A DNA stretch of 64,000 nt from Acidimicrobiales bacterium (lineage in GTDB: Bacteria > Actinomycetota > Acidimicrobiia > Acidimicrobiales > SZUA-35): contig JBFGLT010000001.1 in the NCBI GenBank assembly GCA_041576015.1, positions 5,918 to 69,917 of the forward strand. Reading direction: 5' to 3'. Below, piece by piece: positions 1 to 53,773 of this stretch. The position numbers were made by a program, and so were the translations under genes. How positions within the stretch are numbered: position 1 is the stretch's first letter; each line of letters starts with the position of its first letter. The notes beneath the pieces are model-generated. The model had not been told where the DNA came from. It was given only the letters and a program-made list of their open reading frames with translations, and ran no database searches.

Positions 1-1
1 A

Positions 2-1099: not shown

Positions 1100-1111
1100 G
1101 CCCGACCTCGT

Positions 1112-1645: not shown

Positions 1646-1665
1646 AGACCGCCAGTGTGACCGAT

Positions 1666-2373: not shown

Positions 2374-2489
2374 ATTCGCCTCATACCGCTCTTTCACGGG
2401 TAATCCGAGAGTTGTAACCGAAGGTAGCAACCACGTGCCGTGGTGGGAATGAACAAGGCAAGAATCGGGAACGTCTGCCCATCATCGCC

Positions 2490-4770: not shown

Positions 4771-4773
4771 CGG

Positions 4774-6414: not shown

Positions 6415-6482
6415 GGCCGCACTCTCAGTCGTAGGACTCAACGGGCCAGGTTACTGGCACCGGGGCCAGAACGACTGAGCAG

Positions 6483-8618: not shown

Positions 8619-8748
8619 ATCGGTTCATCGGCACGATCGGAATCGGGTTGAGCCCTAATTGGGCACGCCCACGTCGCCCCGACGGCCCGCACGCGCGACC
8701 GCTGGTCCGATGTCCCTGGTGGGAGCGTTCCCGACCGGGCCGGGCCCG

Positions 8749-10008: not shown

Positions 10009-10047
10009 CCCCGCGGATGATGTCCCGGGCCCGCTGTCCGGGGCCCG

Positions 10048-12542: not shown

Positions 12543-12616
12543 TGCGCCGTGTGAGGATCGTGGCTCATTACCCCCCGGTATCGTCCGATCGGACTACCCA
12601 GAGAAACGAGGAACCG

Positions 12617-13786: not shown

Positions 13787-13797
13787 GTTGTGCGCGA

Positions 13798-35540: not shown

Positions 35541-35576
35541 GCTGGTTCGCCGGCTACCGGCGGCGTCCGAACCAGC
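35541..35576. terminator. Hairpin at the ileS/divIVA convergent junction
   Basis: GCTGGTTCG ... CGAACCAGC: a 9-bp stem with an 18-nt loop that contains a CCGG-CTA-CCGG sub-hairpin. It starts 6 nt after the ileS stop and overlaps the last codons of the divIVA-like gene. There is no U-tract. Confidence 0.3.
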
Positions 35577-37493: not shown

Positions 37494-37757
37494 TCAGATC
37501 GAACAGACGATCTGCACCACGATCGCCAGGATCAAGAACATCGCCAGCTCGGCGACACCGAAGCCGGCCATCGCTCCGGGAAGCGGCGGCAGTGCGCGGC
37601 GCAACGGAAGCAGAGCCGGTTCGGTGACACTGAAGGCCATCTCGCGTACCTGCATCATCGGCCCGCCGGTGCGGGCGGGGAACCAGGACAGCGCGATGCG
37701 AACGAAGAAAGCGAACTGGAACGCCAATACGGCGAAACACAAGATGTCGGCAACCAT
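37494..37757 (-). CDS. yggT: YggT-family membrane protein
   Basis: 87 aa with two TM segments; IALSWFP and EPALLPLRR motifs. Canonical position between sepF and divIVA. Confidence 0.85.
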   Translation of the reverse strand: MVADILCFAVLAFQFAFFVRIALSWFPARTGGPMMQVREMAFSVTEPALLPLRRALPPLPGAMAGFGVAELAMFLILAIVVQIVCSI

Positions 37758-38512
37758 CAGCGGTTGAACCCGCGCTCGTGCATCCGGCGGAGGTCCTCGG
37801 GGCTGACGTCCACACCGTTCGGCGTCAGCAGGTAGACGTTGGCGGCCAGACGCTCCATTCCGCCGGAGAGGACATAGCAGACGCCACTGGCGAAGTCGAT
37901 CAACCGGCGGGCGACCGGCTTGTCCACCGCCGACAGGTTCATCACGACCGGCGAGCCGGCGCGGAAATCATCGGCGAGCCGGCTGGCCTCGTCGAATGAG
38001 CTCGGGATGTGGAGTCGGGGTTTGGCGTGCGTGACCACGTTGGATTGGAGCTCCTGGGGAGGACGGGACGGGGACGCTGCCAGCGGGCGGGCCGATTGAG
38101 CGGCTCCCGAGTCGGCACCCTCGATCGTCGCGGTGGACGGCGGAGCGTCGAAGACGGTCATCCGCTCGTCGTGGGCAAGCGGTTCGTCGGCGGGAGGTTC
38201 CGCCCGCCGGACCGTGCTCCGCCGGTCGATCGCTGGGTCCGGATCGGAGTCGGCAACCGGCACCGCACGAAGCGGCCGCACGGCGCCGACTCCACCGACC
38301 TCGGGGGCATCTCCCTCCACGGCGAACCCGAACGACTGGGACGGGGCGACCCCTTCGAGACGTTCTCCGACGGCGATCGTGTGACTCCGGCGACTCGCCT
38401 TGGACCGGCGATCGGGCTCCTCGGCGTCCTCGTCGTAATACGTCTCGTCGTCGTAGACCTGATCGTCGTCGTCCAGACCGAGAAACGCCATGACGTTGCG
38501 GAACACAGCCAT
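37757..38512 (-). CDS. sepF: Cell division protein SepF
   Basis: N-terminal MAVFRNVMAFLGL (membrane-targeting helix), a disordered linker, and a C-terminal SepF domain (RLADDFRAGSPVVMNLSAVDKPVARRLIDFASGVCYVLSGGMERLAANVYLLTP). Confidence 0.9.
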   Translation of the reverse strand: MAVFRNVMAFLGLDDDDQVYDDETYYDEDAEEPDRRSKASRRSHTIAVGERLEGVAPSQSFGFAVEGDAPEVGGVGAVRPLRAVPVADSDPDPAIDRRSTVRRAEPPADEPLAHDERMTVFDAPPSTATIEGADSGAAQSARPLAASPSRPPQELQSNVVTHAKPRLHIPSSFDEASRLADDFRAGSPVVMNLSAVDKPVARRLIDFASGVCYVLSGGMERLAANVYLLTPNGVDVSPEDLRRMHERGFNR

Positions 38513-38658: not shown

Positions 38659-39372
38659 TCAGTCGGGACGGGGCCCGAAGATCAACGACCCGATGCGGAC
38701 GATGGTGGCGCCCTCGTCCACCGCCACCTCGAAATCGCCCGACATGCCCATCGAGCAGTCGTCCAGTCCCAGCCCGTCGGCCAAGCGGCGGCACAGCGCG
38801 AACGCCGGCCGGGGATCCCGCGAGGGGTCGGTCGGGCCCATCGTCATCAGCCCCCGCACGACGAGTCCCAGCTCCCCGGCAGCGTTCACCAACCTGTCAA
38901 GACCGGCCGGATCGACGCCGGACTTCGACGCCTCGCCGGTCGTGTTGACCTGCACGAGCACGGCGGCTCCCGGCTCCCTTCGAGCCAGCTCACCGGCGAG
39001 GGACACTCGGTCGACGGTGTGCCAGAGCGCAACGCGGCCTACGAGCTTCTTCACCTTGTTCCGCTGAACCGGTCCGATCATGTGCCACCGGGGCGGGTCG
39101 ATGTCGGTTCCGGTCAGCAGTTCGTCGACCGCCTCCGCCTTGGCGAGCAACTCTTGCCCGTAGTTCTCGCCGAGCTCCCGGCAACCGGCCATAACGGCAG
39201 CCGCCGCCACCTCCGGGGGGAATCGCTTGGTCACCGCTACGATCTGCACGTCCTGGTCGGGTTGGCGGCGAGCTTCGATCCGGTCGGCGATACCGGCCAG
39301 CGCGGCTGCGATGGCGCCGGCCCGTCCGCTGATCCCGCTGTCGACCAGCTGTTGATCGGTTCCCTCAACCAC
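38659..39372 (-). CDS. yggS: YggS-family pyridoxal-phosphate homeostasis protein
   Basis: GTG at 39372 overlaps the pgeF stop (GTGGTTGA). IVAVTKRFP (PLP Lys), WHMIGPVQRNK, MGMSGDFEVAV and IVRIGSLIFG. Confidence 0.85.
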   Translation of the reverse strand: MVEGTDQQLVDSGISGRAGAIAAALAGIADRIEARRQPDQDVQIVAVTKRFPPEVAAAAVMAGCRELGENYGQELLAKAEAVDELLTGTDIDPPRWHMIGPVQRNKVKKLVGRVALWHTVDRVSLAGELARREPGAAVLVQVNTTGEASKSGVDPAGLDRLVNAAGELGLVVRGLMTMGPTDPSRDPRPAFALCRRLADGLGLDDCSMGMSGDFEVAVDEGATIVRIGSLIFGPRPD

Positions 39373-40063
39373 GTTCGACCAGCCTAGCGACGGTGACGAG
39401 GCGCTGGCCGTCGGCTCGAACTCGGTGGCTGAAGTAGCGAGGATCGGCGGTGCTCGGCGGCCGCTCCGGCGGGATGAACCCGGCCCGCTCCACGGCCACC
39501 CGGACTCCGGCGAACAGATCGAGAGCCGGTCGGCCGTCGACGGTTTCGGACAGCACCACGGAGCCGTATCGCTCGACGACCAGGGCGAGTTCCGGCTGGG
39601 CGAACTCGTAGTGTTCGGGGCCGATGCACGGGCTGCACACGCTGGTGCGGTGCGGAAGGGGCCGTCCGGCCAGCTGGTCCAGGAGCGCAGCAGCCGCCTC
39701 GACCACGCCGGCCACCAGGCCCCGCCAGCCGGCATGGACCACGGCCAAACCGGCACGGTGTTCGCCGTCGGTGGCCACGAGGACCACCCCTGCGCAGTCG
39801 GCGGTCGTCACACCGATCGGAGCATCGAGGCAGAGCGTCGCACCGGCATCGGCTGCGCCACCGGCGTGGGCGCCGGGCCGGTCGACCGGCACCGCAACGG
39901 CACCGTGCTGTAGTCGCAACCAGGTCCACGGGGCGTCGACGAGGGCTCGCCGGCGACGGTCGACTTCAGCAGCGGACACGGCGAAGTCACCGTCCCGAGC
40001 TTCGGTTGAGATGATCTCGACCCCGACGGCCGGGGTCAGTTGGCGACGGATGGTGCTGGCCAT
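39365..40063 (-). CDS. pgeF: YfiH/PgeF-family (laccase-domain) peptidoglycan editing factor
   Basis: GVTTADCAGVVL and VHAGWRGLVAG motifs. Canonical position downstream of ftsZ. Confidence 0.85.
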   Translation of the reverse strand: MASTIRRQLTPAVGVEIISTEARDGDFAVSAAEVDRRRRALVDAPWTWLRLQHGAVAVPVDRPGAHAGGAADAGATLCLDAPIGVTTADCAGVVLVATDGEHRAGLAVVHAGWRGLVAGVVEAAAALLDQLAGRPLPHRTSVCSPCIGPEHYEFAQPELALVVERYGSVVLSETVDGRPALDLFAGVRVAVERAGFIPPERPPSTADPRYFSHRVRADGQRLVTVARLVERG

Positions 40064-40085: not shown

Positions 40086-41243
40086 TTACTTCAGGAACGA
40101 CGGCACGTCGAAGTCGTCATCCAGGTCGTCGTCGTCGCTGGCGAACACGTCGATGGCCTGCCGGGTTCCACTGGAGACCGGAGCCTGGTCCTCCAGGAAG
40201 GCGTCGTAGCTCCGTCCGGCCGAGGAGGAACTGGCCCGTCCGGCCCCACCACCGGGGGGCGGGGTGTAGACCGACGTGCGCTCGGGGCTCGGCTCACCGT
40301 CCCACCGATCGAAACCGGCTGCGATGACCGTGACCCGGATCTCCTCGCCCATGCTCTCGTCGACCACGGTGCCGAAGATGATGTTGGCCTCGGGGTGAGC
40401 CACGTCGTGAATGATCTCGGCGGCTTCGTTGACCTCGAACAGGCCGAGCTCGCTGCTGCCGGCGATCGACAACAGAATGCCGCGGGCTCCTTCGATGGAG
40501 GCCTCCAGCAGCGGGCTGGCGATTGCCGATCGAGCTGCCGACAGCGCCCGGCCTTCTCCTGCGGCCTGGCCGATGCCCATGAGAGCCGACCCGGCATCGG
40601 ACATGATCATTCGCACGTCGGCGAAGTCGGTGTTGATCAGACCGGGGGTGGTGATCAGATCGGTGATGCCCGAGACCCCCGACAGCAGGATCTCGTCGGC
40701 CATCTTGAAGGCGTCGATCATCGTGGTCCGCTCGTCGGCGATCGACAAGAGCCGGTCGTTGGGGATCACGATCTGGGTGTCGACTTTTTCCTTCAGCCGG
40801 GAGATCCCGTTCTCGGCCACCATGGCCCGCCGGCGCCCTTCGAAACCAAAGGGCCGGGTGACGACGGCGATGGTGAGCGCTCCCTGGGTCTTGGCGATCT
40901 CGGCGATCACCGGCGCCGCACCGGTGCCGGTGCCGCCGCCCTCGCCGACGGTGATGAACACCATGTCGCCACCTTCGAGCGCAGCAGCGATCTCCTCCCG
41001 GTGCTCCTCGGCGGCCTGCTGGCCGATCGCGGGGTCCGACCCGGCGCCGAGCCCACGGGTGAGCTCGCGACCGATGTGGATCTTGGTCTCGGCATCGTTC
41101 ATCAGCAAGGATTGGGCGTCGGTGTTCACCGAGATGAACTCCACACCACGCATGCCGGCGTCGATCATTCGGTTGACGGCATTGCAGCCACCGCCGCCGA
41201 TGCCGAGGACTTTGATGACCGCCACGTAGTTCTGGGTGTTCAT
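40086..41243 (-). CDS. ftsZ: Cell division GTPase FtsZ
   Basis: [30 protein letters not shown] (tubulin signature) and a C-terminal [15 protein letters not shown] peptide. Confidence 0.98.
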
Positions 41244-41351: not shown

Positions 41352-42335
41352 TTACGAACACTTTGTCAGATCGGCAAGTCCGTCCCGCGGATTACCGTTT
41401 TCTCCAATTCGTGACACGGCCGGGGCGGACGGGACGGTCAGATCGATTTCGTGAACGCATCGCAGATCGACCGACAGGAGCAGTGTCTCCAGAGAGATGA
41501 CCTTGGCCTCGAGCTCTTCATCCTGACCCAGAACGGCCCGTCCACCGTCGATCAGCCCGAGGGCCAGTTCGTCCCCCGTGACGATCACCTCGCTCACGGC
41601 CGCCCGCACCGGCGGGGTGATCTGGGCCATGAGGCGCAACACCGACGTCGACCCCGGCGGCGCCGGATCACCGGGCCGCCCGGTCGCCTGGAGCCCGATG
41701 ACCGGGAGGAAGCCGTCCGGGGGCTCCGCGGTCACCCGGACCTGACGGCCGTCGTCGTCGACGAGCACGTACCCGTCGGCTGTCTTCAGCGCCATTGTCG
41801 GCTCCCGTTCGGTCACGACGATCGTCACCGTTCCGTCGAGCTGCCGTCCGACGGTGGCCGCCCGCACCTCGGGGATCTGCTCGACCCGGGCGGCGACCGC
41901 TTCCACCTCGAGGTCCAGGATCGGGCTCCCCATCGGAATGGCGGCAGCGGCGACGACGTCGGCGACGCCCACATCCGAGACACCCGTGACCTCGACGCGG
42001 TCGATGTCGAGCAGCGGCGAGCGGATGAGCGCCAAGCCGGCCGTGCTGGCGACGGTGATGGCGACCAGCACGATGATCACGCTACGCCGGCGCTCGCGCC
42101 GCTGGGCCCGCACCGCTGCTGATCGCGCCGTGAGATTCCGCGCCGGTACGTTGGCCCCACCCGGGGCGCCCGCCCGGCGACGGGAGCGAGCGGGTTGCAC
42201 TCGTGTCCGGGGCGGTGCGGAGCGCCTCGTCTCGCGCCGTGGTTTCCGGTCGCCGGCTGCCGTTTTGCGCGTCGCGGCGGATCGCTTGCCGGCTGGCTGC
42301 TTCGGGGCGGGACGCGTTCCGGTCTTCGCCGGCAT
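41352..42335 (-). CDS. ftsQ: Cell division protein FtsQ/DivIB with Arg-rich N-terminal tail
   Basis: A basic tail of about 95 aa, a TM segment (SVIIVLVAITVASTAGLALI), POTRA (IDRVEVTGVS) and the FtsQ domain. Confidence 0.85.
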   Translation of the reverse strand: MPAKTGTRPAPKQPAGKRSAATRKTAAGDRKPRRETRRSAPPRTRVQPARSRRRAGAPGGANVPARNLTARSAAVRAQRRERRRSVIIVLVAITVASTAGLALIRSPLLDIDRVEVTGVSDVGVADVVAAAAIPMGSPILDLEVEAVAARVEQIPEVRAATVGRQLDGTVTIVVTEREPTMALKTADGYVLVDDDGRQVRVTAEPPDGFLPVIGLQATGRPGDPAPPGSTSVLRLMAQITPPVRAAVSEVIVTGDELALGLIDGGRAVLGQDEELEAKVISLETLLLSVDLRCVHEIDLTVPSAPAVSRIGENGNPRDGLADLTKCS

Positions 42336-43264
42336 CAGCGGACCTCCCGATCGAATCCGACCAGTTCGTTCTCGGTCTCCAGTTCGACACCGAAGCGCTG
42401 CCGCACACGCTCCCTCACCGCTTCGACCACCGCCAGCACGTCCTCCGCCGACCCGCCCGGGTCGGCCTGGATGAAGTTGGCGTGTTTGTCAGAAACCTGG
42501 GCGGTTCCGATCCGGAAACCCTTGAGACCGGCTGCGTCGATGAGCCGGCCCGCCGAGTCGCCGGTCGGGTTGGTGAACACCGATCCGGCGTTCTGTCCGC
42601 CGGGCTGATGGGCGCGTCGCCACTGCACGATCCGGCGGAGCATCTCCTCGCCGTCGGCAGCCGAGCGCTGGCTCAACCTCAGCTCCGCCCACAGCACGAC
42701 GTCGTCACCGCTGAGATTGCTCGCACGGTAGGCGAAGCCCAACCGGTCCGGTGTCCACTCCCGAGGACCGCCGCTCCGCAAGTTGAACACCGAGACCCGG
42801 GTCAGGGCGGCCGCCATGTCGCTGCCGTGCCCGCCGGCGTTCATCCGCACCGCGCCACCGACCGTGCCCGGCACGCCGACGGCCCATTCGAAGCCGCCGA
42901 TCCCCTGCCGGGTGAGTTGCCGGGCGACGCGCGGCAGCATCGCCGCCCCACCGACGGTCACGTACACGCCGTCGTTCCCCTGGCGAATCTCGGTCGACGT
43001 GAAGGCCGGACCCAACCGGACGACGACTCCGGGAAATCCCCGATCGCTGACCAGGAGGTTCGATCCTGCGCCGACGACCAGGAATCTTACGTCGGCCGGC
43101 ACGACCCGGCGGATGACCTCGAGGTCGGCGACGCTGTCGACGTCGACGATCGCACGCGCCCGACCCCCGACCCGGTAGGTGCAGAGTGCAGCGACCGATC
43201 CGTCGGCCCGTACACGGCCGGCGAGCGCCGCTTCGAGCTCGGCGACCAGTGGGTCATCGTGCAT
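42335..43264 (-). CDS. murB: UDP-N-acetylenolpyruvoylglucosamine reductase
   Basis: ATG at 43264 overlaps the murC 3' end. YRVGGRA, VVGAGSNLLVSD, GGHGSD and NAGSVFTNP motifs. Confidence 0.9.
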   Translation of the reverse strand: MHDDPLVAELEAALAGRVRADGSVAALCTYRVGGRARAIVDVDSVADLEVIRRVVPADVRFLVVGAGSNLLVSDRGFPGVVVRLGPAFTSTEIRQGNDGVYVTVGGAAMLPRVARQLTRQGIGGFEWAVGVPGTVGGAVRMNAGGHGSDMAAALTRVSVFNLRSGGPREWTPDRLGFAYRASNLSGDDVVLWAELRLSQRSAADGEEMLRRIVQWRRAHQPGGQNAGSVFTNPTGDSAGRLIDAAGLKGFRIGTAQVSDKHANFIQADPGGSAEDVLAVVEAVRERVRQRFGVELETENELVGFDREVR

Positions 43265-44687
43265 CGATCGCCTCTCGGTCGAGAACCCGTGCGATCTCAG
43301 CGAGGACCGCATCGGCGACACCGGGCAGGTCACCGGCGCTGAGCAGCAGACACGTGTCACCCGGGCTGACCAGCGGAGCAACTGCGGCGGCGACCTCGGC
43401 GGGCTCACCCACCCGGCGAACAGGAACTTTCGGTGCCCTGCGGCGGAGGTCGTCGACGATCGCGTCGGACGACACATCCATTCTCGGCTGCTCGCCGGAC
43501 GCGTAGATGTCGGTGACCACGACCGCGTCGGCCAGTTGGAGCGCACCGGCGAACGTCGGCCACAGCGTCGCGGTCCGGGAGTACCGGTGCGGCTGAAACA
43601 CGACGACCACCCGCCCCTCGCTTCGATCCCGGGCGGCGGAGATCGCCGCTCGGATCTCCCCGGCGAGGTGGGCGTAGTCGTCGATCACGGTCACCCCGGC
43701 TGCCGATCCCCGGTCCTCGAACCGCCGGCCCACGCCGGCGAAGTCGGCTGCGCCGGCGAGACCGTCCTCTACGGAATACCCCAGCGCCACCAACACCCCG
43801 AACGCGGCGGTCATGTTGAGGGCGTTGTGCCGTCCGGGCGGGCCGATCCGCAGGTCGTGGTGGGCGCCTCGATGTTGCAGCCGCGACTGCGCCGGCGCAT
43901 AGGCGAGGCGGAGGTCGGCCGATTCCATTTCACCGTACGTGACCACGTCGCAGCTGCGTTGGGCCGGGCCGGCGAGGAGCTCCCGGACCCCTCGATCATC
44001 GATGCAGGCGACGACCGCCTCCAGCTCGGGGGCTGACACGAACGTTGCGAACGCCTCCCGCAACCCGTCTTCTCCACCGTAGAAGTCCAGGTGATCGGGC
44101 TCGATGTTGGTCACCACGCCGATGTCGGTGTCCAGTTCGACGAATGTGCCATCGCTCTCGTCGGCCTCGACGACGAGCACCCCGTCGGGATCGCCGAGGA
44201 GCGCTCCGGGGACGATGTGCTCGACGCCGAGGATTCGTCCGCCGATGACGGTGGTGACGGGGACCCCGGCCGCCACCAGGACGGCGGCCGTCATCGACGC
44301 CGTCGTCGTCTTGCCGTGGGTTCCGGCCACCGAGACGGTCCGAAAGGCGCGGGTGATGGCCGCCAGTGCCTCCGCCCGACGGTGCACGGGCCGGCCGGCA
44401 CCGAGGGCAGCCGACACCTCGGGATGTGAGTCGGGGATCGCCGTCGATCTCACGAGCGCCGCATCGGCGGGTACGGCTCGGTAGTCTGCGCCCACGGTGA
44501 CCGCGACGCCGAGTTCAGCGAGGCGTTGCAGCGTCTCGGAGGGGCGCTGATCCGACCCGCTGACCGGCACGCCGAGATGGGCCAGCACAGCGGCGATCGG
44601 GGCCATCCCTGCCCCGCCGCAACCGATGACATGGATCGGTCGGGAGCCGAGGTCGATGGTGGACGGGACCGTGCTCATGGCGATCAC
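43254..44687 (-). CDS. murC: UDP-N-acetylmuramate--L-alanine ligase
   Basis: IHVIGCGGAGMAPIAAVL, VAGTHGKTTTASM and DDYAHLAGEI. Confidence 0.95.
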   Translation of the reverse strand: MIAMSTVPSTIDLGSRPIHVIGCGGAGMAPIAAVLAHLGVPVSGSDQRPSETLQRLAELGVAVTVGADYRAVPADAALVRSTAIPDSHPEVSAALGAGRPVHRRAEALAAITRAFRTVSVAGTHGKTTTASMTAAVLVAAGVPVTTVIGGRILGVEHIVPGALLGDPDGVLVVEADESDGTFVELDTDIGVVTNIEPDHLDFYGGEDGLREAFATFVSAPELEAVVACIDDRGVRELLAGPAQRSCDVVTYGEMESADLRLAYAPAQSRLQHRGAHHDLRIGPPGRHNALNMTAAFGVLVALGYSVEDGLAGAADFAGVGRRFEDRGSAAGVTVIDDYAHLAGEIRAAISAARDRSEGRVVVVFQPHRYSRTATLWPTFAGALQLADAVVVTDIYASGEQPRMDVSSDAIVDDLRRRAPKVPVRRVGEPAEVAAAVAPLVSPGDTCLLLSAGDLPGVADAVLAEIARVLDREAIDAR

Positions 44688-45835
44688 GAGTGTTGCAGAT
44701 GACGGAGCACCATCTGCGCCACCTTGCCGGCGGCGGCGGCGTGATCGACCGCCGGCACGGCCGAGCGCATCCGAGCTCTCGTGCCGGGGTCGAGCAGCGA
44801 TTCGACGGTGGTGGCCAGAGCCGCGCCCGACAGTGATGCATCGTCCATCACGACCGCCAGTCCCTGCGCGACGAGCTCCTCGGCGTTGGTCCGCTGGTGG
44901 TCCCGTGGGGCTCCGGGCAGGGGCACGATGATCGCCGGCAGACCGGCGACGCTCAGTTCGGCCACGGTGCTTGCTCCCCCGCGGGTGACGGCGAGATCGG
45001 CGGCCAGCAACAGCGTAAGCATGTCGTCTTCATACGGGACGGTGCGATAGACGAGCGACCCGTCGACATCGAGGGGAGCCAGCGCGGCGGCGTTGCGCCG
45101 GCCGACCACGTGATGGAGCACGAGGTCCTCGCGATCGATCCACAGGCGGGCCAGTTCCCGCACGGCCCGGTTGATCCGGTCGGCACCCAGCGATCCGGCC
45201 CACACCGCCACCAGGAGCTGGCCGTCCCTCACCCCGAGCTCGGCGCGTGCGCGCCGCCGTTGAGTTCCGCTTCGATCGGTGAGACCCTCGGCGACCACCC
45301 GGCGGATCGGATTCCCCGTGAGGACGCCGCCACGAGGCAGATCGGTAGACGGGAAGGGCAGGGCTCGGTCGGCGGCGAAGCGCGCGACGAAGCGATTCAC
45401 GGCGCTCGCTCGAGAGTTCTGCTCGGTCACGACCACTGGAACCCCCAGGAGCCGCGCTCCCACAGCCGGCGCGAACGCCGCGAACCCACCGAGGCAGACG
45501 ACCACTTCGGGATTCCGGCGCCGGAGGAGGGGGATCGCCGCACCCATCCCGCCGGCGAGCTCGATGACGCTCTTCACCGCAGCGAGCCCGACGCGGCGCG
45601 GAACGCCGCGTCCGGGCAGGACGTCGAGATCGAATCCGGCCGCCGGGACCAGGGTCGCCTCGTTGCCGCGGCGGGAGCCCACGAAGCCAATGTCGCTGCG
45701 GTCGATGCCGGCCTCGACCAGCGCTTCGGCGATGGCGATCCCCGGATTGGTGTGGCCGGCGGTCCCTCCGCCGACGATCAGGACACGACGACGGATCGCG
45801 CGCCGGTCGTCTCGCCCGCCGTCAGCGCCGGCCAC
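44684..45835 (-). CDS. murG: Undecaprenyldiphospho-muramoylpentapeptide beta-N-acetylglucosaminyltransferase
   Basis: VLIVGGGTAGHTNPGIAIAEAL and GGASTVAELSVAGLPAIIVP. Confidence 0.95.
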   Translation of the reverse strand: MAGADGGRDDRRAIRRRVLIVGGGTAGHTNPGIAIAEALVEAGIDRSDIGFVGSRRGNEATLVPAAGFDLDVLPGRGVPRRVGLAAVKSVIELAGGMGAAIPLLRRRNPEVVVCLGGFAAFAPAVGARLLGVPVVVTEQNSRASAVNRFVARFAADRALPFPSTDLPRGGVLTGNPIRRVVAEGLTDRSGTQRRRARAELGVRDGQLLVAVWAGSLGADRINRAVRELARLWIDREDLVLHHVVGRRNAAALAPLDVDGSLVYRTVPYEDDMLTLLLAADLAVTRGGASTVAELSVAGLPAIIVPLPGAPRDHQRTNAEELVAQGLAVVMDDASLSGAALATTVESLLDPGTRARMRSAVPAVDHAAAAGKVAQMVLRHLQHS

Positions 45836-47342
45836 GGCGGGCGATCCCGACGAGCAGGCCGCTGGCGAAGAGCGTGGTCACCAGACTGGAGCCGCCGAGC
45901 GAGACGAAGGGCAGAGGCTCGCCGGTGATGGGCGCCAACCCCAACGCCATGCCGATGTTCAAGGCCGTCTGGGTCACGATCCAAATCGTCAGACCAGAGG
46001 CCAGGAGCCGCCCGAAGGCATCCGGCGCCCGGAGAGCGGCGAGAAACCCGAGGTAGCCGAAGAGGCCGAACGCCAGCACGAGACCGGCGGCGCCGACGAC
46101 ACCGAGCTCCTCGGCGACGACGGCGAAGATGAAGTCGGTCTGCGCCTCGGGCAGGAATCCCCACTTGGCCCGGCTGGCGCCGAGACCGCGACCGAGCAGG
46201 CCACCGGAGGCGATGCCGATCTGACTCTGGATCGTCTGCATGCCGATCCCGTCTGGACTCGACCACGGGTCGAGGAACGCCAGCACCCGGGCTCGACGGT
46301 ACGGTGCCGAGTAGGCGAGGACCGTGGTGACAGCCAGCAGGCTGAACGCCCACTTGGCGAGATGGCCGACGTGGACCTTGCCGACGTACAGCATGAGGAT
46401 GGCCACCGTTCCCATGATGACGGGCGTACCGAGCTTTGGCTGAGCGAGCAGGAGCGCCGAGAACGCACCGACGATGACCAGGACGGGGCGGATCGTGCGT
46501 TCGGGTCGGTGGGCGTGGTTTTCCCGACGGGCGAGCAGGGTCGCCGTGACCAGGATCACCGAGAGTTTGGCGAACTCGGCCGGTTGGATCACCACCGGTC
46601 CGAACGAGAGCCACCGGCTCGATCCGTTGACGGTCCGGCCGACCCCGGGGACGAGGACGACGAGGAGCAGCGCAGCGCTGAAGACAGCCGCCGGCACGGC
46701 GATGCGGGCGACGTGGCGGTAGTTCATCCGGCTGCCGGCGAAGAAGGCCAGGCCACCCAACAGGGCGTACCGCAGTTGGCGGGAGAAGTAGAAGAACGGT
46801 GATGCGTCGGCCCGGTGGACGCTGGAGACCGACGATGCCGACAGAACCATGACCAGTCCGAACAGCGTGAGGCCGATCACCAGGATCGTGATCGACCAGC
46901 CGATTCGCTCGCCGACCTCGGTCGCCGGAAGCTTCGGAGTCGAAGCCGGCTTCCACCACGGGCGGGGCGCCTGGCGGCGGCGCGCCTGGCCCGACCGTGA
47001 GCGGCCGGCGACAGCCCGGCCCGACCGTGAGCGGCCGGCGGCCTGGCCCGGCCGGCGCGAATCGCCGGCGGGAGAGCGGCGGCCGCTGCGGGAGGCACGA
47101 CCGTTGGTCTTGGCGGCCGGCTTGCTCGGCGCGCGGGTCGGCGAATCCCGTCGGGCCGTCGCGGTCCGCTTCGTGGTCGCCCCCGTGCGGCGGGGAGGAG
47201 CGGGGCGGCGGGTCGCACGCTTCTGACCGGGCGCCTTGCTCGCTGCGACCTTCCGTTTGGGTTTGGAGCCGCTGCGCGATTTCGACGTTCGCCGGGCCGG
47301 CGCCCGGTCAATCCGGGGTTTGCGGGTGAGGGTCTTGCTCAT
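45822..47342 (-). CDS. ftsW: SEDS-family peptidoglycan glycosyltransferase FtsW with ~125-aa basic N-terminal tail
   Basis: ATG at 47342 overlaps the mraY stop (ATGA). A basic tail (MSKTLTRKPRIDRAPARRTSKSRSGSKPKRK...) precedes about 10 TM segments with QPAEFAK, PDFIFAV-like DFIFAVV and LPFVSLGGSS. Confidence 0.9.
   Translation of the reverse strand: MSKTLTRKPRIDRAPARRTSKSRSGSKPKRKVAASKAPGQKRATRRPAPPRRTGATTKRTATARRDSPTRAPSKPAAKTNGRASRSGRRSPAGDSRRPGQAAGRSRSGRAVAGRSRSGQARRRQAPRPWWKPASTPKLPATEVGERIGWSITILVIGLTLFGLVMVLSASSVSSVHRADASPFFYFSRQLRYALLGGLAFFAGSRMNYRHVARIAVPAAVFSAALLLVVLVPGVGRTVNGSSRWLSFGPVVIQPAEFAKLSVILVTATLLARRENHAHRPERTIRPVLVIVGAFSALLLAQPKLGTPVIMGTVAILMLYVGKVHVGHLAKWAFSLLAVTTVLAYSAPYRRARVLAFLDPWSSPDGIGMQTIQSQIGIASGGLLGRGLGASRAKWGFLPEAQTDFIFAVVAEELGVVGAAGLVLAFGLFGYLGFLAALRAPDAFGRLLASGLTIWIVTQTALNIGMALGLAPITGEPLPFVSLGGSSLVTTLFASGLLVGIARRGRR
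46988..47040 (-). repeat. 23-nt exact duplication at 30-nt period inside the ftsW tail-coding region
   Basis: GGCCCGACCGTGAGCGGCCGGCG occurs at 46988..47010 and 47018..47040, encoding GRSRSG(R/Q)A decapeptide repeats. Confidence 0.95.
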
Positions 47343-48385
47343 GAACCGATCTCCACGGCTTGGACCCAGTCCGCATAGAACAGGCCGAGAGCGACGGCGG
47401 TCAAGCCGCCAGCGATCAACCAGAACCGAATGATGACCTTGGTCTCCCGCCAGCCCGCCAGTTCGAAGTGGTGGTGGATGGGCGCCATGCGGAAGAGCCG
47501 CTTGCCCCCGGTCGACTTGAAGTAGGCGACCTGCAGCACGACCGACAGGGTCTCGGCGACGTAGACACCACCGATCACCGGGAGCAGCAGGTGGGTGTTG
47601 GTGAGCAGGGCCAACGAGGCGAGGCCGGTTCCGATTGCCAGTGACCCGGTGTCCCCCATGAAGATCTCCGCTGGGGCGGCGTTGAACCACAGGAATCCGG
47701 CCAGAGCCCCGACCATGGCGACGGCGACGATCGCCAGATCGAGGGCGTGAGGAACGAGGTACAGATCGGGACGGGTCTCGTTCTGGCGGAATATCCAGAA
47801 CCCGATCAGCACGTAGGCGGCGAAGGAGAATATGCCCGAACCGCCGGCCAGGCCGTCGAGGCCGTCGGTCAAGTTCACGGCGTTGCTGCTGCCGATGATC
47901 AGCAGCACCGCCCAGAGAGCCCACCCGACGGTTCCCAGATCGAGCGAGGTGAACCGGGTGAAGGAGAGTTCGGTCCTGGTGGTGGTGTAGGCCTGGGTGG
48001 CGATGGCGAAGCCGGTGGCGACCGAGAGCAACCCGAGCATCTTCGTCCGCTTGTTCAGACCGAGGTTCCGCTCTCGCGAGACCTTGATCCAGTCGTCCAA
48101 GAAGCCGACCGCGCCGGCGCCGACGATGGCACCCATCGCCAGTAGACCCGAGCGGGTGTAGATGCCCCCCTGGATGATGTGACTGAAGAAGTAGCCGGCG
48201 ACAGCACCGACGACGATGGCGATGCCGCCCATCGTCGGCGTCCCCGCCTTGATCTGGTGACCCTGGGGGCCGTCCTCACGAATCGGCTGGCCGATGCGAT
48301 TCCGGGTGAGCAGGTCGATCAGGAATTTGGTGCCGAGGGCACTCAAGGCGAATGCGATCCCGGCGGCTGTGAGAAGGCGAATCAT
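47339..48385 (-). CDS. mraY: Phospho-N-acetylmuramoyl-pentapeptide transferase
   Basis: ATG at 48385 gives MIRLLTAAGIAF. GTPTMGG, NAVNLTDGLDGLA, FMGDTGSLAIG and APIHHHFE motifs. Confidence 0.95.
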   Translation of the reverse strand: MIRLLTAAGIAFALSALGTKFLIDLLTRNRIGQPIREDGPQGHQIKAGTPTMGGIAIVVGAVAGYFFSHIIQGGIYTRSGLLAMGAIVGAGAVGFLDDWIKVSRERNLGLNKRTKMLGLLSVATGFAIATQAYTTTRTELSFTRFTSLDLGTVGWALWAVLLIIGSSNAVNLTDGLDGLAGGSGIFSFAAYVLIGFWIFRQNETRPDLYLVPHALDLAIVAVAMVGALAGFLWFNAAPAEIFMGDTGSLAIGTGLASLALLTNTHLLLPVIGGVYVAETLSVVLQVAYFKSTGGKRLFRMAPIHHHFELAGWRETKVIIRFWLIAGGLTAVALGLFYADWVQAVEIGS

Positions 48386-48392
48386 GGCAGGT

Positions 48393-49790
48393 TCACCATC
48401 CTGCTCGCTCGAGCGACTCGACGGCCACCACCCGGTCATCGAAATCCAGGACCCGGCCATCGATGGTCTGGGTGGCCTCGTGACCTTTGCCGGCGATCAG
48501 CACGACGTCGCCGGGGCCGGCGCCGGCAACGGCCTGGTCGATCGCCACCCGGCGATCCGGCTCGACGGTCACCTCGCTCAGGTCGGGCACCCCTGCGAGG
48601 ATGGCGGCGGCGATGGCGGCCGGGTCCTCGCCGCGAGGGTTGTCCGATGTGACGGTGATCCGGTCGGCCCCCTCCGCGGCCACCCGGCCCATCAACGGTC
48701 GCTTGTCCCGGTCACGGTCGCCGCCACATCCGAACACCACATGGACCGCCCCGGTAGCCGCTCGCCGGCACGCCTCCAGGGCGACGCTGAGACCCGCCGG
48801 AGAGTGGGCGAAGTCGACCACGACACGGAAGGGCTGCCCAAGGTTGATCCACTCCATCCGGCCGGGTACTGGGTCGATGGCTCCGATGGCGTCGGCGATG
48901 TCGTCGGGTTCGATGTCGAGCGACTCGAGCACGACCGCCGCACAGAGCGCATTGACGACGTTGTGCCGGCCGGCGAGTTGCAGTGTGACCGGCCGGCCCC
49001 GCCACGCGAACGACGAGGTGGCCGCCGCCAGGCTCAGTTCGGCCGCATCGTCGATCCCGTAGGTGAGCGCATCGGGCCGGCGGTCGATCAATGTGCGGCC
49101 GGCCGAATCCTCCCGATTGATGACGGCCATCCGGCTCCGCTCCGGTTCGAACAGCGTCGCCTTTGCCTCGAAGTAGTCGGCCATCGTCCCGTGGAAGTCC
49201 AGATGGTCCTGGGAGAGGTTCGTGAACGCGGCGACGTCGAACCGAAGCCCCTCGACTCGGTGGAGGGCGAGCGCGTGGCTCGACACCTCCAGAGCGAGGT
49301 AGCGGACCGCTCGTCGACGGAGGTCGGCGAGTCCAGCGAACAGGTCGGTTGCATCGGGGGTGGTGAGCGAACCCGTGAGGGTTCCGGACACCTCCACCGC
49401 TCGATCGAGGCGTCCGAGCATGGCGCCCAGCATCTGGGTCACGGTCGTCTTGCCGTTCGTACCGGTCACCCCGATGAGGGTGATGTGGCGTTCGGGGTGA
49501 CCGAGCACCGTCGCAGCCGCCGGTCCTGCCATCCGCCGCGTGTCGGTGACCAGGACCTGTGGCACGTCGATGTCCAGCCGCCGCTCGACGAGGAGCGCAG
49601 CGGCTCCAGCCGCCACGGCCCGATCGGCGAAGTCGTGCCCGTCGGCCGACTGCCCGGGGACGCACACGAACAGGAACCCGGACTGGACGAGGCGGGAGTC
49701 GTGGGTGATGCCGGCGACCTCGACCGACTCACCCACCAGCTCGCCGTCGACGTCGGCGGCGACGCGGCGCAGTTCCACACCGGCGGCCAT
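48393..49790 (-). CDS. murE: UDP-N-acetylmuramoyl-L-alanyl-D-glutamate--2,6-diaminopimelate ligase
   Basis: GVTGTNGKTT, DFAHSPAG, GCGGDRDRDKRP and SDNPRGEDP. The DNPR motif is associated with meso-DAP-adding MurE. Confidence 0.9.
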   Translation of the reverse strand: MAAGVELRRVAADVDGELVGESVEVAGITHDSRLVQSGFLFVCVPGQSADGHDFADRAVAAGAAALLVERRLDIDVPQVLVTDTRRMAGPAAATVLGHPERHITLIGVTGTNGKTTVTQMLGAMLGRLDRAVEVSGTLTGSLTTPDATDLFAGLADLRRRAVRYLALEVSSHALALHRVEGLRFDVAAFTNLSQDHLDFHGTMADYFEAKATLFEPERSRMAVINREDSAGRTLIDRRPDALTYGIDDAAELSLAAATSSFAWRGRPVTLQLAGRHNVVNALCAAVVLESLDIEPDDIADAIGAIDPVPGRMEWINLGQPFRVVVDFAHSPAGLSVALEACRRAATGAVHVVFGCGGDRDRDKRPLMGRVAAEGADRITVTSDNPRGEDPAAIAAAILAGVPDLSEVTVEPDRRVAIDQAVAGAGPGDVVLIAGKGHEATQTIDGRVLDFDDRVVAVESLERAGW

Positions 49791-49793
49791 TCC

Positions 49794-51806
49794 TCACCCA
49801 CCTTCGGCCGGATCGGCGGCGACGTCGAGGTCGACGACGCTCGGCGAGTCGCTGGGTTCGACGGCCACCGGGTGTTCCGCTGGGGTCGTCGCAGTCACCT
49901 CTTCGTCACCGGCGGCCGGGCCGGGTTCCCCTGCGGGCGGGTCGGACTGCGGCGATTCAGCGGGTTCGCCCCCGGCCCGCCGGGCGTCCTCGGCGATGGC
50001 GGGTGTACCGCGCACGAGCGTTCGCGCCTGGCGCCACGCCGGCGTTGCCTCCGCCTGCCCCGGTGCGATCTTGAGCACCCGCAGGGCGTACTGCGCGATC
50101 TGCGCAAAGGTGGGCGCTGCCGCAGTCGTGGCGCTCGTCGCCGTCCGGGGTTCGTCGATCATCAACACGACCGAGAGTTCGGGATCGGCGGCCGGAACCA
50201 GTCCGCCGAACGTGGTCACGTATCGACGGTCGTTGTCGCTTCCGTAGGAGAGGCGTCCGCTGCCGTTGTCGAACACCTTCCAGGCCGTACCGGTCTTCCC
50301 GGCCACCTCGTAGCCCTCGATGGCGGCCTTGAACCCGGTGCCCTCCTCGCCGGTGACCGCGGTCATCATCTTCAGCATCTCGGCGGCTGCGTCGGGATCG
50401 ATCACGGGCCGCTCGATGGGATCGGAAATCAGATGGTCCTCGCCGTCGGCATCCTCGACATTGGCAACGATGACGGGCTGGACGTAGCGGCCGTCGTTCC
50501 CGATGGCGTTGAAGGCGGCCGCCAGCTGTAGGAGGTGGACCGTCATCCCCTGTCCGATCACGATCGATCCGGCGTCGCTCCCCTGCCACTCCGAAGGGTG
50601 CCGCAGCACCCCGGCCACCTCGCCGGCGAAGTCGAGCCCGGTCAGCTCGCCGAACCCGAAAGCCGAGGCGTATTCGTAGTACCGCTGGGGGCCCAGCTGC
50701 TGGGACAGACCGATCGTGGCCACGTTGCTCGACCGGGCCAGCGCATCGCCCAGGGTCATCTCCAGCTCCTCGTGGCGGGGGTGATCGAAGAACGGCTTGT
50801 CGGCCACCTCGATCGACCCGGGTACGGTGATCAGGTCACCGGCCTCGTAGCCGAGGTGGTCGGCGGCGGCGGCGAAGGCGACGATCTTCATCACGGAACC
50901 GGGCTCGAAGGTGTCGATCACCGCCTTGTTGTACGACGCCACCCCACAGGTGGTTTCGTCGATGCGGTCGACGCTCGCCATGCTGTAGATCTCGCCGGTC
51001 TTGGGATCGCTCACGATGGCCGCCGCCCCCATGGCGCCTAGTTTCTCGCACGTGTCGATCAGGATGGCTTCGGTGCCGAATTGGATCCGGTGGTCGAGCG
51101 TCAGCGTGATGTCGTACCCTCGCTCGGCAGGCTCGACGATCCGCTCGCCGACGCTGATCGACCCGAAGATGCCCCGCTCGTACCGCTCGAATCCCGACGT
51201 GCCGGCCAGCAGTTCCTCGAATTGCTGCTCGACGCCCGAGCGCCCGACCTCGTCGGGATCGACCCGGCCGATCACCGGTCTGGCCAGGTCGCCGGCGGGG
51301 TAAAGCCGATCCTCCTCAGGCCGGATCACGATGCCGTCGAACGCCTCGGTCGTGTCGGCGTCGGCGACCATTGTCCGGATGGCGGCCAGCGCTTCCTGAT
51401 CGCTCGTGGCCGCCACGACGTTGTACCGGTCCTCGTCGTTGGCGGGCAGAAGCCGGTCGTGGATGATGTTGGCCTCGATGCCCAACTCCGGGGCCAGGAG
51501 CGTCGCCGTCCAGGCGGGGTCGGCAACCAGTTGAGGGTCGGCGATGAGCAGCTGGGTCGGGGTGCTGGCGGCCAGGACGTACCCCTCCCGGTCGAGCACC
51601 TGACCGCGAAAACCAGCCAGCTTGCGGGTGGCGGTGCTCTGATCGAACGCCAGATCGCGGTATCGGTGGGGACGAACGGCCTGCAGGTCGACCAATGCCG
51701 CCATGAACACGACCATGACGACGAAGAAGCAGGCGAGAACGGCGAACACTTGCGGATGCTCGGCGAAGAGTGTCCGGGTCGACCGGCGGGGTCGGCGGCG
51801 GGTCAT
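49794..51806 (-). CDS. ftsI: Class B penicillin-binding protein (FtsI/PBP3-like transpeptidase) with Pro/Ala/Glu-rich C-terminal tail
   Basis: An N-terminal TM, then SVMK (SxxK), SSN and KTGTA motifs, then a ~90-aa low-complexity tail. Confidence 0.9.
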   Translation of the reverse strand: MTRRRPRRSTRTLFAEHPQVFAVLACFFVVMVVFMAALVDLQAVRPHRYRDLAFDQSTATRKLAGFRGQVLDREGYVLAASTPTQLLIADPQLVADPAWTATLLAPELGIEANIIHDRLLPANDEDRYNVVAATSDQEALAAIRTMVADADTTEAFDGIVIRPEEDRLYPAGDLARPVIGRVDPDEVGRSGVEQQFEELLAGTSGFERYERGIFGSISVGERIVEPAERGYDITLTLDHRIQFGTEAILIDTCEKLGAMGAAAIVSDPKTGEIYSMASVDRIDETTCGVASYNKAVIDTFEPGSVMKIVAFAAAADHLGYEAGDLITVPGSIEVADKPFFDHPRHEELEMTLGDALARSSNVATIGLSQQLGPQRYYEYASAFGFGELTGLDFAGEVAGVLRHPSEWQGSDAGSIVIGQGMTVHLLQLAAAFNAIGNDGRYVQPVIVANVEDADGEDHLISDPIERPVIDPDAAAEMLKMMTAVTGEEGTGFKAAIEGYEVAGKTGTAWKVFDNGSGRLSYGSDNDRRYVTTFGGLVPAADPELSVVLMIDEPRTATSATTAAAPTFAQIAQYALRVLKIAPGQAEATPAWRQARTLVRGTPAIAEDARRAGGEPAESPQSDPPAGEPGPAAGDEEVTATTPAEHPVAVEPSDSPSVVDLDVAADPAEGG

Positions 51807-52180
51807 CGCCCCACCGGTCGGGCAGCGACCAGGTAGACCGGACGGACCGCGCGCACCATGCCGAGCGCTCGCGCCCTCCGGACGATCTCCTCGGGCGAGG
51901 AGGCGACCACGACATCGCGCTCGAGCAGGGCGATGTCATTCTCGAGCTGCCCAATCTCGGCTTCCAGCGCGTCGAGCTCGCTCTGGGTCTGCACCAGCTG
52001 CGCTTGCACGAGGGCGACGCCGAAGAACACGCCGACCAGGAGGGTCAGAGCGATGAAGAGCAGCCGCCGGCGCCGGGCGCGGCTGCGGAGCGCGACGAAG
52101 TCGATCAGGAACAGCGACGGGGCCGAGGCGGCGCGACCGCGCCCCGCCGGCCGGCGGCGGGCCGGTGACGTCGTACTCAT
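51803..52180 (-). CDS. ftsL: FtsL/FtsB-like septum formation initiator
   Basis: 125 aa with a basic N-terminus, one TM and a leucine-zipper-like coiled coil (LVQTQSELDALEAEIGQLENDIALLERD). Canonical position between rsmH and ftsI. Confidence 0.7.
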   Translation of the reverse strand: MSTTSPARRRPAGRGRAASAPSLFLIDFVALRSRARRRRLLFIALTLLVGVFFGVALVQAQLVQTQSELDALEAEIGQLENDIALLERDVVVASSPEEIVRRARALGMVRAVRPVYLVAARPVGR

Positions 52181-53112
52181 GCCGCCTCCGGGCGATGCTG
52201 GATCGCCCGCAATCGGGCGCTTCGCGACCGCCGGTTGGCCTCCTGCTCGGCAGCGGTCGGCCGTCGGACCGCCGGGCGTAGGATCTCGAACGGCGGCGGG
52301 ACAGCCGGGACGGGAAGGCCGGGCGGGGTCGCGGAGGTCGTGTAGTGCCGGAAGACGCCCTTGACGATCCGGTCTTCACCCGAGTGATAGGTGATCACAG
52401 CGCCCCTCCCACCCGGAACCAGCAGGTCGAGCGCGGCGCGCAATGACGGCTCGAGAACCTCGAGCTCGTCGTTGACGGCGATGCGGATCGCTTGAAAGGT
52501 TCGCTTGGCGGGGTGACCGCCGCGGCGGCGGGCGGCGGCAGGGATGGCGGCCGCCGCGACCTCGGCCAGCTGGAGGGTCCGGTGGATCGGGCGGGCTGCC
52601 ACGATCGCCCGAGCGATCCGTTCGGCGTAGCGTTCGTCGCCACCCCGCCGGAGAGCCCGGGTCAACTGTGCCGCCGACCACGTGTTGACGACCTCGTCGG
52701 CGGTGAGCGCACTGGCCGGGTCCATTCGCATGTCGAGAGGGCCATCCCGCTGGAAGCTGAAGCCCCGCTGGGCTTGATCGAGTTGAGGCGAACTGACCCC
52801 CAGGTCGAACAGGAAGCCCGACAGGCGACCGACGCCTATCGAGCTCAACAGGTGGCCGAGCGCGTCGAACCGGCCGGCCAGGATCCGAACGCGACCGGCA
52901 AATCTGGCCAGGCGGTCCGCAGCAGCAGCCCGAGCTGCCGGATCCCGATCGATGCCGACGACATCGAGGTGAGGCGCCGCATCGAGAAGCAACTCTGCGT
53001 GTCCGCCGCCGCCCAGGGTCGCATCCAGCACCACACCGGGCGGCACCTGACCGAGGACCTCCACGACTTCTCCCGCCAGAACCGGCGCATGCACGAACCG
53101 CGAAGGCGTCAT
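52177..53112 (-). CDS. rsmH: 16S rRNA (cytosine1402-N4)-methyltransferase
   Basis: HAPVLAGEVVEVL, DATLGGGGHAELLL, DLGVSSPQLD and ITYHSGEDRIVK. Confidence 0.95.
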   Translation of the reverse strand: MTPSRFVHAPVLAGEVVEVLGQVPPGVVLDATLGGGGHAELLLDAAPHLDVVGIDRDPAARAAAADRLARFAGRVRILAGRFDALGHLLSSIGVGRLSGFLFDLGVSSPQLDQAQRGFSFQRDGPLDMRMDPASALTADEVVNTWSAAQLTRALRRGGDERYAERIARAIVAARPIHRTLQLAEVAAAAIPAAARRRGGHPAKRTFQAIRIAVNDELEVLEPSLRAALDLLVPGGRGAVITYHSGEDRIVKGVFRHYTTSATPPGLPVPAVPPPFEILRPAVRRPTAAEQEANRRSRSARLRAIQHRPEAA

Positions 53113-53347: not shown

Positions 53348-53773
53348 CTAGAGGCCCATCCGCTCCAGTGCGGCGCTCACGTTGGCATTGGCCTGATCGG
53401 TCCCGTGCATCTGGTGGAACAGGTCGCGCGGCCAGATCTCGATGCGGTTCAGGGCGCCGGACAGCACGACCGGCTGGCCGAGTCGAAAGCCCTCGAGCAG
53501 GATTCGGTTGATCGTGATGCGCCCGGCCGAGTCGATCCTGGCCCGCTGGGTCTCGCCGGTCAGCTTGCGGAACGTCACACCGTCGATCACGCCCTCCTGA
53601 CGGTGGTTGACCCAGTCGGCGGAGACGTCCAGGTAGCCGGCCTCGGACCAGACACCGAGCCGCTCGCCCATGCGGACGACGTACCCCAGCGAGCCGAGCT
53701 GCTCCCGGAAGTCCGGTGGGAGTACGACGCGACCTTTGTCGTCCAGCGTGTGCTCGTACTGGCCAACGAACAA
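53348..53773 (-). CDS. mraZ: Transcriptional regulator MraZ
   Basis: Two SpoVT/AbrB-type repeats: FVGQYEHTLDDKGRVVLP and DSAGRITINRILLE. The proposed TTG start at 53773 matches the usual MFxGxxxHxxDxKGR N-terminus. The track ORF extends to 53878 through the operator region. Confidence 0.85.
   Translation of the reverse strand: MFVGQYEHTLDDKGRVVLPPDFREQLGSLGYVVRMGERLGVWSEAGYLDVSADWVNHRQEGVIDGVTFRKLTGETQRARIDSAGRITINRILLEGFRLGQPVVLSGALNRIEIWPRDLFHQMHGTDQANANVSAALERMGL

Follow-up and report, generated by a model that had tools for sequence, protein, structure and literature searches.

The window analysed here, a 64-kb stretch of DNA, carries on its minus strand a dcw cluster with the gene order mraZ-rsmH-ftsL-ftsI-murE-mraY-ftsW-murG-murC-murB-ftsQ-ftsZ (Table 1). 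Gene identities were established from NCBIfam profile scores read against the curated cut-offs, together with orthology and position, and they bear out the order proposed in a previous, sequence-only reading of this DNA. The 5’ end of the cluster (mraZ-rsmH, on one strand with the rest) is present and the ftsL-ftsI pair precedes murE, ftsL being identified by position and orthology only. mraY, ftsW, murG and murC follow in sequence, ftsQ and ftsZ form the 3’ end, and murB lies between murC and ftsQ, i.e. inside the cluster as had been claimed. The window MraZ is 67%, 38% and 49% identical over its full length to the MraZ of the related loci L167, L168 and L170, respectively (tblastn), and its FtsI and the orthologue in L167 share 68% identity. 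ftsL shares ATGA overlaps with both rsmH and ftsI; its counterparts in L168 and L169 give weak or faint DivIC matches. The mraY start is backed by a database protein (P0492, 348 aa) that is 100% identical to the window MraY, while the murB start was chosen by comparing the possible start codons with where the HMM match lies. Downstream of ftsZ, the yggS-like, sepF and DivIVA genes are in the same order in relatives. From rsmH to ftsQ, adjacent genes either overlap or are separated by no more than 7 nt. The locus is a genuine dcw operon, compact and translationally coupled, from an uncultured Acidimicrobiales bacterium.

Table 1 Features of the dcw cluster and of the region downstream of ftsZ. 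Paired values are profile score / curated cut-off, in bits.
Feature	Coordinates	Strand	Description and evidence
mraZ	53351..53773	-	141 aa, TTG start; tblastn with relatives’ MraZ
rsmH (mraW)	52177..53112	-	TIGR00006 303 / 154
ftsL	51803..52180	-	125 aa; by position and 74.5% identity to the L167 counterpart ORF
ftsI	49794..51806	-	Class B PBP, 670 aa; top NCBIfam matches SpoVD, PBP2, FtsI
murE	48393..49790	-	465 aa; TIGR01085 463 / 257.3; NF001126 451.7 / 373
murE/mraY spacer	48386..48392	-	7 nt; murF site in canonical clusters; reads ...GGATGGTGAACCTGCCATGATT
mraY	47339..48385	-	348 aa; TIGR00445 305 / 192
mraY stop/ftsW start overlap	47339..47342	-	ATGA; murD site in canonical clusters
ftsW	45822..47342	-	506 aa; TIGR02614 356 / 337.5 over residues 150-503
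murG	44684..45835	-	TIGR01133 208, under the cut-off of 250; MurG still best match by far
murC	43254..44687	-	TIGR01082 377 / 335
murB	42335..43264	-	NF010480 271 / 259; ATG start at 43264, overlaps murC end
ftsQ	41352..42335	-	NF004039 E = 9e-17, weak, under cut-off; POTRA_1 here in relatives
ftsZ	40086..41243	-	TIGR00065 410 / 295
yggS-like ORF	38659..39756	-	Pfam Ala_racemase_N; downstream of ftsZ
sepF	37757..38512	-	Pfam SepF; downstream of ftsZ
DivIVA-domain protein	35554..37413	-	Pfam DivIVA; downstream of ftsZ

The canonical actinobacterial/E. coli-type cluster, for which E. coli K-12 served as reference, reads mraZ-rsmH-ftsL-ftsI-murE-murF-mraY-murD-ftsW-murG-murC-...-ftsQ-ftsZ. The window shares with it the flanking genes, the strand, the order of the common genes and the tight packing, but differs in having neither murF nor murD, with no spacer or remnant. 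Like other Actinomycetota, it has no ftsA; the position of murB between murC and ftsQ is likewise found in canonical Acidimicrobiia-like loci. Reading of the sequence upheld both junctions as originally described: the murE stop (TGA, 48395-48393) and the mraY start (ATG at 48385) are 7 nt apart, with no murF between them, and the mraY stop and ftsW start overlap in an ATGA (47342-47339), with no murD between them. The claim that both genes are absent from the whole 64-kb window also held in three kinds of search. phmmer with MurE and MurC queries, run on every ORF of 90 aa or more, returned murE and murC only, i.e. no third Mur ligase in the window. tblastn of the window with six MurD/MurF queries and with E. 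coli MurD, MurF and Ddl gave only paralogous matches on murE and murC, and MurD and MurF profile HMMs matched only these same two ORFs. A query with MurD from the nearest relative that still has murD gave no signal of a remnant in the window, and no murD remnants in the FtsW tail and no murF remnants were found in the window or in L167.

Synteny comparison of the sampled loci shows that this arrangement is a lineage trait. In a neighbour-joining tree of MraY and MurE, the sampled murF-less clusters (n = 21, including the window) all fall into one Acidimicrobiia clade with 100% bootstrap support; of 17 further murF-less Acidimicrobiia-type loci, 3 were left out of the tree as too short or too frameshifted. 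Sequences with a murF-less cluster include the assemblies GCA_041394265.1 and GCA_041156625.1 and the complete 2.39-Mb chromosome OZ219783.1, the 5.08-Mb contig JAWKIO010000005.1 also belongs to the clade, and the cluster of CAWJOU010000005.1 (3.67 Mb) lacks both genes. Four murF-bearing Acidimicrobiia-like clusters of canonical order (L021, L084, L165 and L166), which keep murE-murF-mraY-murD, lie outside this clade. Most relatives within it retain murD, for example L169 (76% MraY identity) and L168 (73%), both of which read murE-mraY-murD-ftsW; in L169, the mraY/murD and murD/ftsW junctions are both ATGA overlaps. Together with L167, L170, L171, L168, L169 and L003, the window forms a clade at 100% bootstrap. 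Inside the murF-less clade, murD is absent only in the window’s narrow subgroup and in two distant MAGs, L006 and L008, the grouping of which with the window’s group receives 0% bootstrap. Within the subgroup, a common versus a separate murD loss in L170/L171 and the window is supported by bootstrap values of 44% against 35%. The arrangement is thus an inherited gene-order variant of the lineage, gained in two steps. It had been anticipated that the observation would become unremarkable if the arrangement proved universal and already documented in the lineage. The first part applies to the extent that the murF-less state is universal in the clade and the murD-less state is common to the window’s subgroup; as to the second, our literature search found no published account of this arrangement in Acidimicrobiia.

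Each absence taken singly has precedents elsewhere. The sequence-only reading placed murF between murE and mraY in Bacillus as well as in E. coli; this canonical order holds for the E. coli-type reference but is wrong for Bacillus, since the B. subtilis cluster reads murE-mraY-murD-spoVE-murG-murB (PMC9931155). B. subtilis and the window therefore have in common that murE abuts mraY without murF and that murB is in the cluster. They differ in that Bacillus keeps murD and, to judge from how the cluster is named, lacks a murC between murG and murB, while the reverse is true of the window. Four ftsA-bearing metagenome loci (L107, L134, L137 and L163) also have murE-mraY-murD, as in Bacillus. Conversely, ftsW comes straight after mraY in Thermomonas (L075), Devosia (L064), Solirubrobacteraceae (L058 and L061), Pseudofrankia (L010) and spirochaetes (L050 and L056). 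These murD-less loci keep murF wherever their upstream side is visible, whereas the window cluster does not, and in our sample murD-less loci with murE abutting mraY are confined to the murF-less Acidimicrobiia clade (the window, L167, L170/L171, L006 and L008). Because loss of murD from the mraY-ftsW site recurs in several sampled phyla, the arrangement is less exceptional than initially implied. Mur ligase genes also lie apart from mraY and ftsW, with function kept, in the split dcw cluster of Streptococcaceae (PMC8136486); there, however, the whole cluster is broken up and mraZ is lost, while the window has a single compact operon.

Could murF and murD have been dropped through mis-joins at both junctions? 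The source contig (82,348 bp) evidently comes from a metagenome assembly, and mis-assembly was the first refutation that the sequence-only reading itself had named. Yet each junction falls precisely on a gene boundary, its stop and start codons undamaged, and the murE-mraY-ftsW order recurs in three independent assemblies from different projects with 79-83% MraY identity: L167 (83%, a 789-kb ENA contig, contig_6874 of ERZ25039508) and L170/L171 (79%, ENA and Logan assemblies, L170 being contig_60333 of ERZ21269380). At the nucleotide level L167, for which this was measured, is only about 70% identical to the window. The murF-less junction is moreover found in more than 20 other loci. The arrangement is therefore not a mis-assembly, and we give an artefact practically no credence. 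No more credible is that the missing genes are hidden in their neighbours, the murE ORF being in reality murF or murD or a bifunctional MurE-MurF, or the long FtsW (506 aa) holding a MurD module. MurE-MurF and MurD-FtsW chimeras do exist (PMC10214165), and our sample itself contains MurE-MurF fusions in L025, L030, L044 and the Acidimicrobiia protein P0322/P0391. Such a MurE-MurF chimera would have two ligase modules in ~930-1000 aa, but the window MurE has one module in 465 aa, matches NF008896 over its first half alone (positions 22-499 of the 965 in the profile), and scores 463-469 bits on MurE models versus 140 on the MurF model and 111 on the MurD model. It is a single three-domain ligase scoring over the curated cut-off, with a P-loop GTNGKT at residue 110 and a DNPR motif at residue 383. 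As DNPR marks DAP specificity in MurE, the protein is predicted from its sequence to be a DAP-type, i.e. meso-DAP-adding, UDP-MurNAc-tripeptide synthetase. As for FtsW, its N-terminal tail (~150 aa) is basic, low-complexity and rich in Arg/Ala/Ser/Pro/Lys, has no similarity to MurD, and is already there in the murD-bearing L169.

With neither gene in the cluster, MurD and MurF are probably still supplied by genes at other chromosomal sites, since the remaining pathway (MurB, MurC, DAP-type MurE with its DNPR motif, MraY, MurG, FtsW and FtsI) is intact and depends on their products. The opposite view is that the clade truly has no orthodox MurF and the window’s subgroup no orthodox MurD either, with non-orthologous or highly divergent ligases, or another enzyme, adding D-Glu and/or D-Ala-D-Ala, or with an altered precursor giving a non-standard muropeptide. 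In its favour, no murD or murF outside the dcw cluster was seen in clade genomes among the matches listed, and neither gene is present in the 20-kb flanks of ~20 murF-less loci. A MurF search with L007 and L021 as queries gave at least 120 matches, all close kin of the Frankiales-like L007; a MurF query against 50%-identity cluster representatives, followed by a neighbour-joining tree, led to three Acidimicrobiia-like contexts, all canonical dcw. In a metagenome scan with a MurD alignment, the Acidimicrobiia-like matches listed were all dcw-resident, and only one murD among the matches listed was outside a dcw context, in the unrelated L139. These negatives, however, reflect the ranking of the listed matches and not genome-wide absence. 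We also considered whether MurE of murF-less lineages might be unusually MurF-like, and rejected this, as the bit scores of E. coli MurF are 100-106 for MurE of murF-less relatives and 107 for that of the murF-bearing L021. It is also normal for murF to lie outside the cluster, as the case of Bacillus demonstrates; in B. subtilis the gene presumably adjoins ddl. True loss, and with it substitution by another enzyme or a non-standard muropeptide, is accordingly judged very unlikely.

We thus favour, with considerable confidence, a history in which murF and then murD left a genuine compact operon in two steps, both genes now probably being located elsewhere. murF would have been lost from its site between murE and mraY a single time, in the common ancestor of the large Acidimicrobiia clade, and murD would later have left the mraY-ftsW interval in the window’s immediate subgroup. 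The excision of murD left no scar and amounts to cutting out precisely the ORF that two ATGA stop/start overlaps enclose, such that mraY remains translationally coupled to ftsW. At least one further branch of the clade has lost murD independently.

The order of dcw genes is frequently taken to show that the Mur enzymes need to be co-expressed or to assemble jointly (e.g. PMC10214165). An Actinomycetota clade with a tightly coupled dcw operon in which one or two of the four Mur ligases are, as we infer, encoded elsewhere is a natural test case for this view. With 100% support, the murF-less junction is a clean shared derived character, and it could serve as a synteny marker of this Acidimicrobiia clade. 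In MAG annotation, murF or murD missing from a dcw contig should not be taken as loss of the pathway, our view of which is unchanged unless the two genes prove to be truly absent.

The division and cell wall (dcw) genes of the window (G+C ~68%) form one co-directional row on the minus strand, from 53773 to 40086. Ten products of the row were scanned against NCBIfam and these scans, together with the identity of mraZ and the assignment of ftsL by position and orthology, bear out the gene order proposed by the sequence-only reading.

Features of the dcw row and of other parts of the window (NCBIfam values are bits / cut-off)
Feature	Position	Strand	Evidence or remark
mraZ	53351-53773	minus	TTG start; 67% identity to a relative's MraZ
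rsmH		minus	NCBIfam 303 / 154
ftsL	51803-52180	minus	position and orthology
ftsI-type class B PBP		minus	NCBIfam
murE		minus	TIGR01085 463 / 257; NF001126 452 / 373; MurF model only 140, MurD model 111
mraY		minus	NCBIfam 305 / 192
ftsW		minus	NCBIfam 356 / 337.5
murG		minus	NCBIfam 208, under cut-off 250; clearly top match
murC		minus	NCBIfam 377 / 335
murB		minus	NCBIfam 271 / 259
ftsQ		minus	NCBIfam, weak match
ftsZ		minus	NCBIfam 410 / 295
Putative Cu-oxidase_4 gene (probable)	39365-40063	minus	separate ORF
YggS-type ORF	38659-39756	minus	365 aa; PLP domain (Ala_racemase_N) only in C-terminal 200 aa
DivIVA-domain ORF	35554-37413	minus	619 aa (longest-ORF reading); Pfam match limited to residues 87-149
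DnaE (DNA polymerase III alpha subunit)	21063-24620	minus	1185 aa; ~15 kb downstream of dcw cluster
Polysaccharide biosynthesis cluster	1-14000
Wzy_C O-antigen-ligase-like protein	3397-4770		polysaccharide cluster
P-loop ATPase	4774-6441		CbiA/ParA/MipZ-type domains; polysaccharide cluster
Beta-helix protein	6483-8618		polysaccharide cluster
Glycosyltransferases	8659-10008, 12551-13786		polysaccharide cluster
Polysacc_synt_3 flippase	10048-11727		polysaccharide cluster

Beyond the row, the DivIVA-domain ORF is far above typical DivIVA length; the equivalent position in L170, a relative, holds a 497-aa DivIVA gene. In relatives, ftsZ and yggS are separated by a Cu-oxidase_4 gene (PF02578).

The murE stop (TGA, 48395-48393) is followed by 7 nt and the mraY ATG at 48385, and an ATGA at 47342-47339 both ends mraY and begins ftsW, exactly as had been described from the sequence. 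The mraY start is backed by a 348-aa database protein with 100% identity to window MraY (P0492), and all junctions from rsmH to ftsQ overlap or have gaps of at most 7 nt. The row forms a translationally coupled operon and leaves no space for a further gene. The claimed absence of murD and murF from the whole 64 kb also held: phmmer with MurE and MurC against all window ORFs of at least 90 aa returned no ligase beyond those two, tblastn with relatives' MurD and MurF and E. coli MurD, MurF and Ddl matched nothing but the paralogues murE and murC, and MurD and MurF profile HMMs matched murE and murC alone.

A MraY scan with one genome per GTDB species placed Acidimicrobiia and Acidimicrobiales MAGs nearest, and a MraY protein search returned relatives of 68-87% identity, all named ones being Acidimicrobiales, Acidimicrobiia or Actinomycetota MAGs. 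L167, a 789-kb ENA contig (83% MraY and ~70% nucleotide identity to the window), reads mraZ-rsmH-ftsL-ftsI-murE-mraY-ftsW-murG-murC-murB-ftsQ-ftsZ, and no MurD or MurF signal was found in its locus. L170 (133-kb ENA contig) and L171 (independent Logan assembly), both with 79% MraY identity, have the order murE-mraY-ftsW. A mis-assembly, named beforehand as a possible refutation, is thus rejected, since three other assemblies share the order. Chimeras of MurE-MurF and MurD-FtsW are known (PMC10214165); neither type fits the window. Its MurE is one 465-aa module, with P-loop and DNPR motif, and therefore not a MurE-MurF chimera. E. coli MurF scores 100-106 bits against MurE of murF-less relatives and 107 bits against that of L021, a murF-bearing Acidimicrobiia-like locus; such equal similarity scores argue against a bifunctional MurE. 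FtsW residues 1-150 (46890-47342) form an Arg/Ala/Ser/Pro/Lys-rich tail in which no MurD similarity was found.

FtsW tails of this kind (100-150 aa) are strongly basic and of low complexity (21% Arg, plus Ala, Ser, Pro, Lys, Thr). They lie at 12390-12700 in L169, a murD-bearing relative, and at 11083-11500 in L170, where the tail is built from PATKR-like repeats; FtsW of L170/L171 has 485 aa. Being present in L169 and almost lacking in L168, L082 and L083, the tail is older than murD loss and quick to vary.

The ORFs in 170 retrieved loci were classified by phmmer against E. coli and window proteins. Direct abutment of murE on mraY was seen in the window, 24 Acidimicrobiia-type loci (L001-L006, L008, L051, L082, L083, L088-L093, L099, L102, L156, L167-L171) and four ftsA-bearing Bacillus-like metagenome loci. 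In a neighbour-joining tree built from MraY-MurE concatenates (35 taxa, 785 columns), the murF-less Acidimicrobiia loci form one clade with 100% bootstrap, and murF-bearing Acidimicrobiia-like loci (L021, L017, L110, L084, L165, L166, L143, L157, L013) fall outside it, so that loss of murF from the cluster would most simply be one old event. The murF-less state is thereby an inherited lineage trait, as synteny comparison had been proposed to decide.

Most loci of this clade keep murD, including L169 (76% MraY identity) and L168 (73%); in these two, as in the window, genes for an LplA-like protein and an acyl-CoA dehydrogenase lie upstream. murD is absent from the cluster in the window, L167, L170 and L171, which form a clade with L168, L169 and L003 (100% bootstrap); on L170/L171 as sister to the window plus L167, bootstrap support is divided (44% vs 35%). 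The distant MAGs L006 and L008 also lack murD and group with the window's subgroup at 0%, which points to at least two, probably three, independent murD losses. In L169, ATGA overlaps stand at both mraY/murD and murD/ftsW, and FtsW already bears the basic tail. Exact removal of the murD ORF from an L169-like arrangement would yield the window state and thereby keep mraY-ftsW coupling. With L168 MurD as query, no remnant was found in the window or L167, and tblastn found no leftover murD sequence in the window.

The sequence-only reading erred in placing murF between murE and mraY in Bacillus: B. subtilis has murE-mraY-murD-spoVE-murG-murB (PMC9931155), so murE-mraY adjacency, also seen in the window, is normal there. 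In Streptococcaceae the dcw cluster is split (PMC8136486). Among sampled loci, mraY is directly followed by ftsW, as in the window, in Thermomonas, Devosia, Solirubrobacteraceae, Pseudofrankia and spirochaete loci, and the murD-less state combined with murE abutting mraY was seen only within the murF-less Acidimicrobiia clade. Each step is thus precedented in other phyla; a literature search found no paper on the Acidimicrobiia dcw cluster.

In Pseudofrankia asymbiotica (L010, NZ_MOMC01000025.1, 10001-13632) mraY precedes an FtsW ORF of 771 aa (stop to stop) that is much extended at its N-terminus; murD is missing and murC lies on the opposite strand, a layout that may be connected with what is reported on murC in Frankia. 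MurE-MurF fusion ORFs of ~1000 aa occur in Desulfobacterota-type loci (L025 6902-9916, L030 1-2973, L044 6780-9908). A 935-aa MurE-MurF fusion labelled Acidimicrobiia (P0322/P0391), its MurF half 54% identical to L021 MurF, implies three Acidimicrobiia states: murE and murF separate, fused, or murF outside the cluster.

Because the rest of the pathway is intact and Bacillus offers a precedent, we infer that murD and murF have probably been relocated elsewhere in the genome; their true absence from it is very improbable. Among the matches listed, a MurD search with L001 and two contexts turned up murD only inside dcw clusters that lack murF, a MurF search of representatives with a tree, cluster names and three contexts gave only dcw-resident murF, and a metagenome MurD scan gave no relocated Acidimicrobiia murD. 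The only clearly non-dcw murD context among the matches listed is L139 (Ga0308398_1000006, 8001-9287), a lone homologue with 36% identity to the query, the 8 kb to each side of it being free of other dcw genes.

The original observation is therefore real and exact in description, and the arrangement is a variant in the gene order of a known operon, reached in two steps and inherited. Its murF step cleanly marks an Acidimicrobiia clade.
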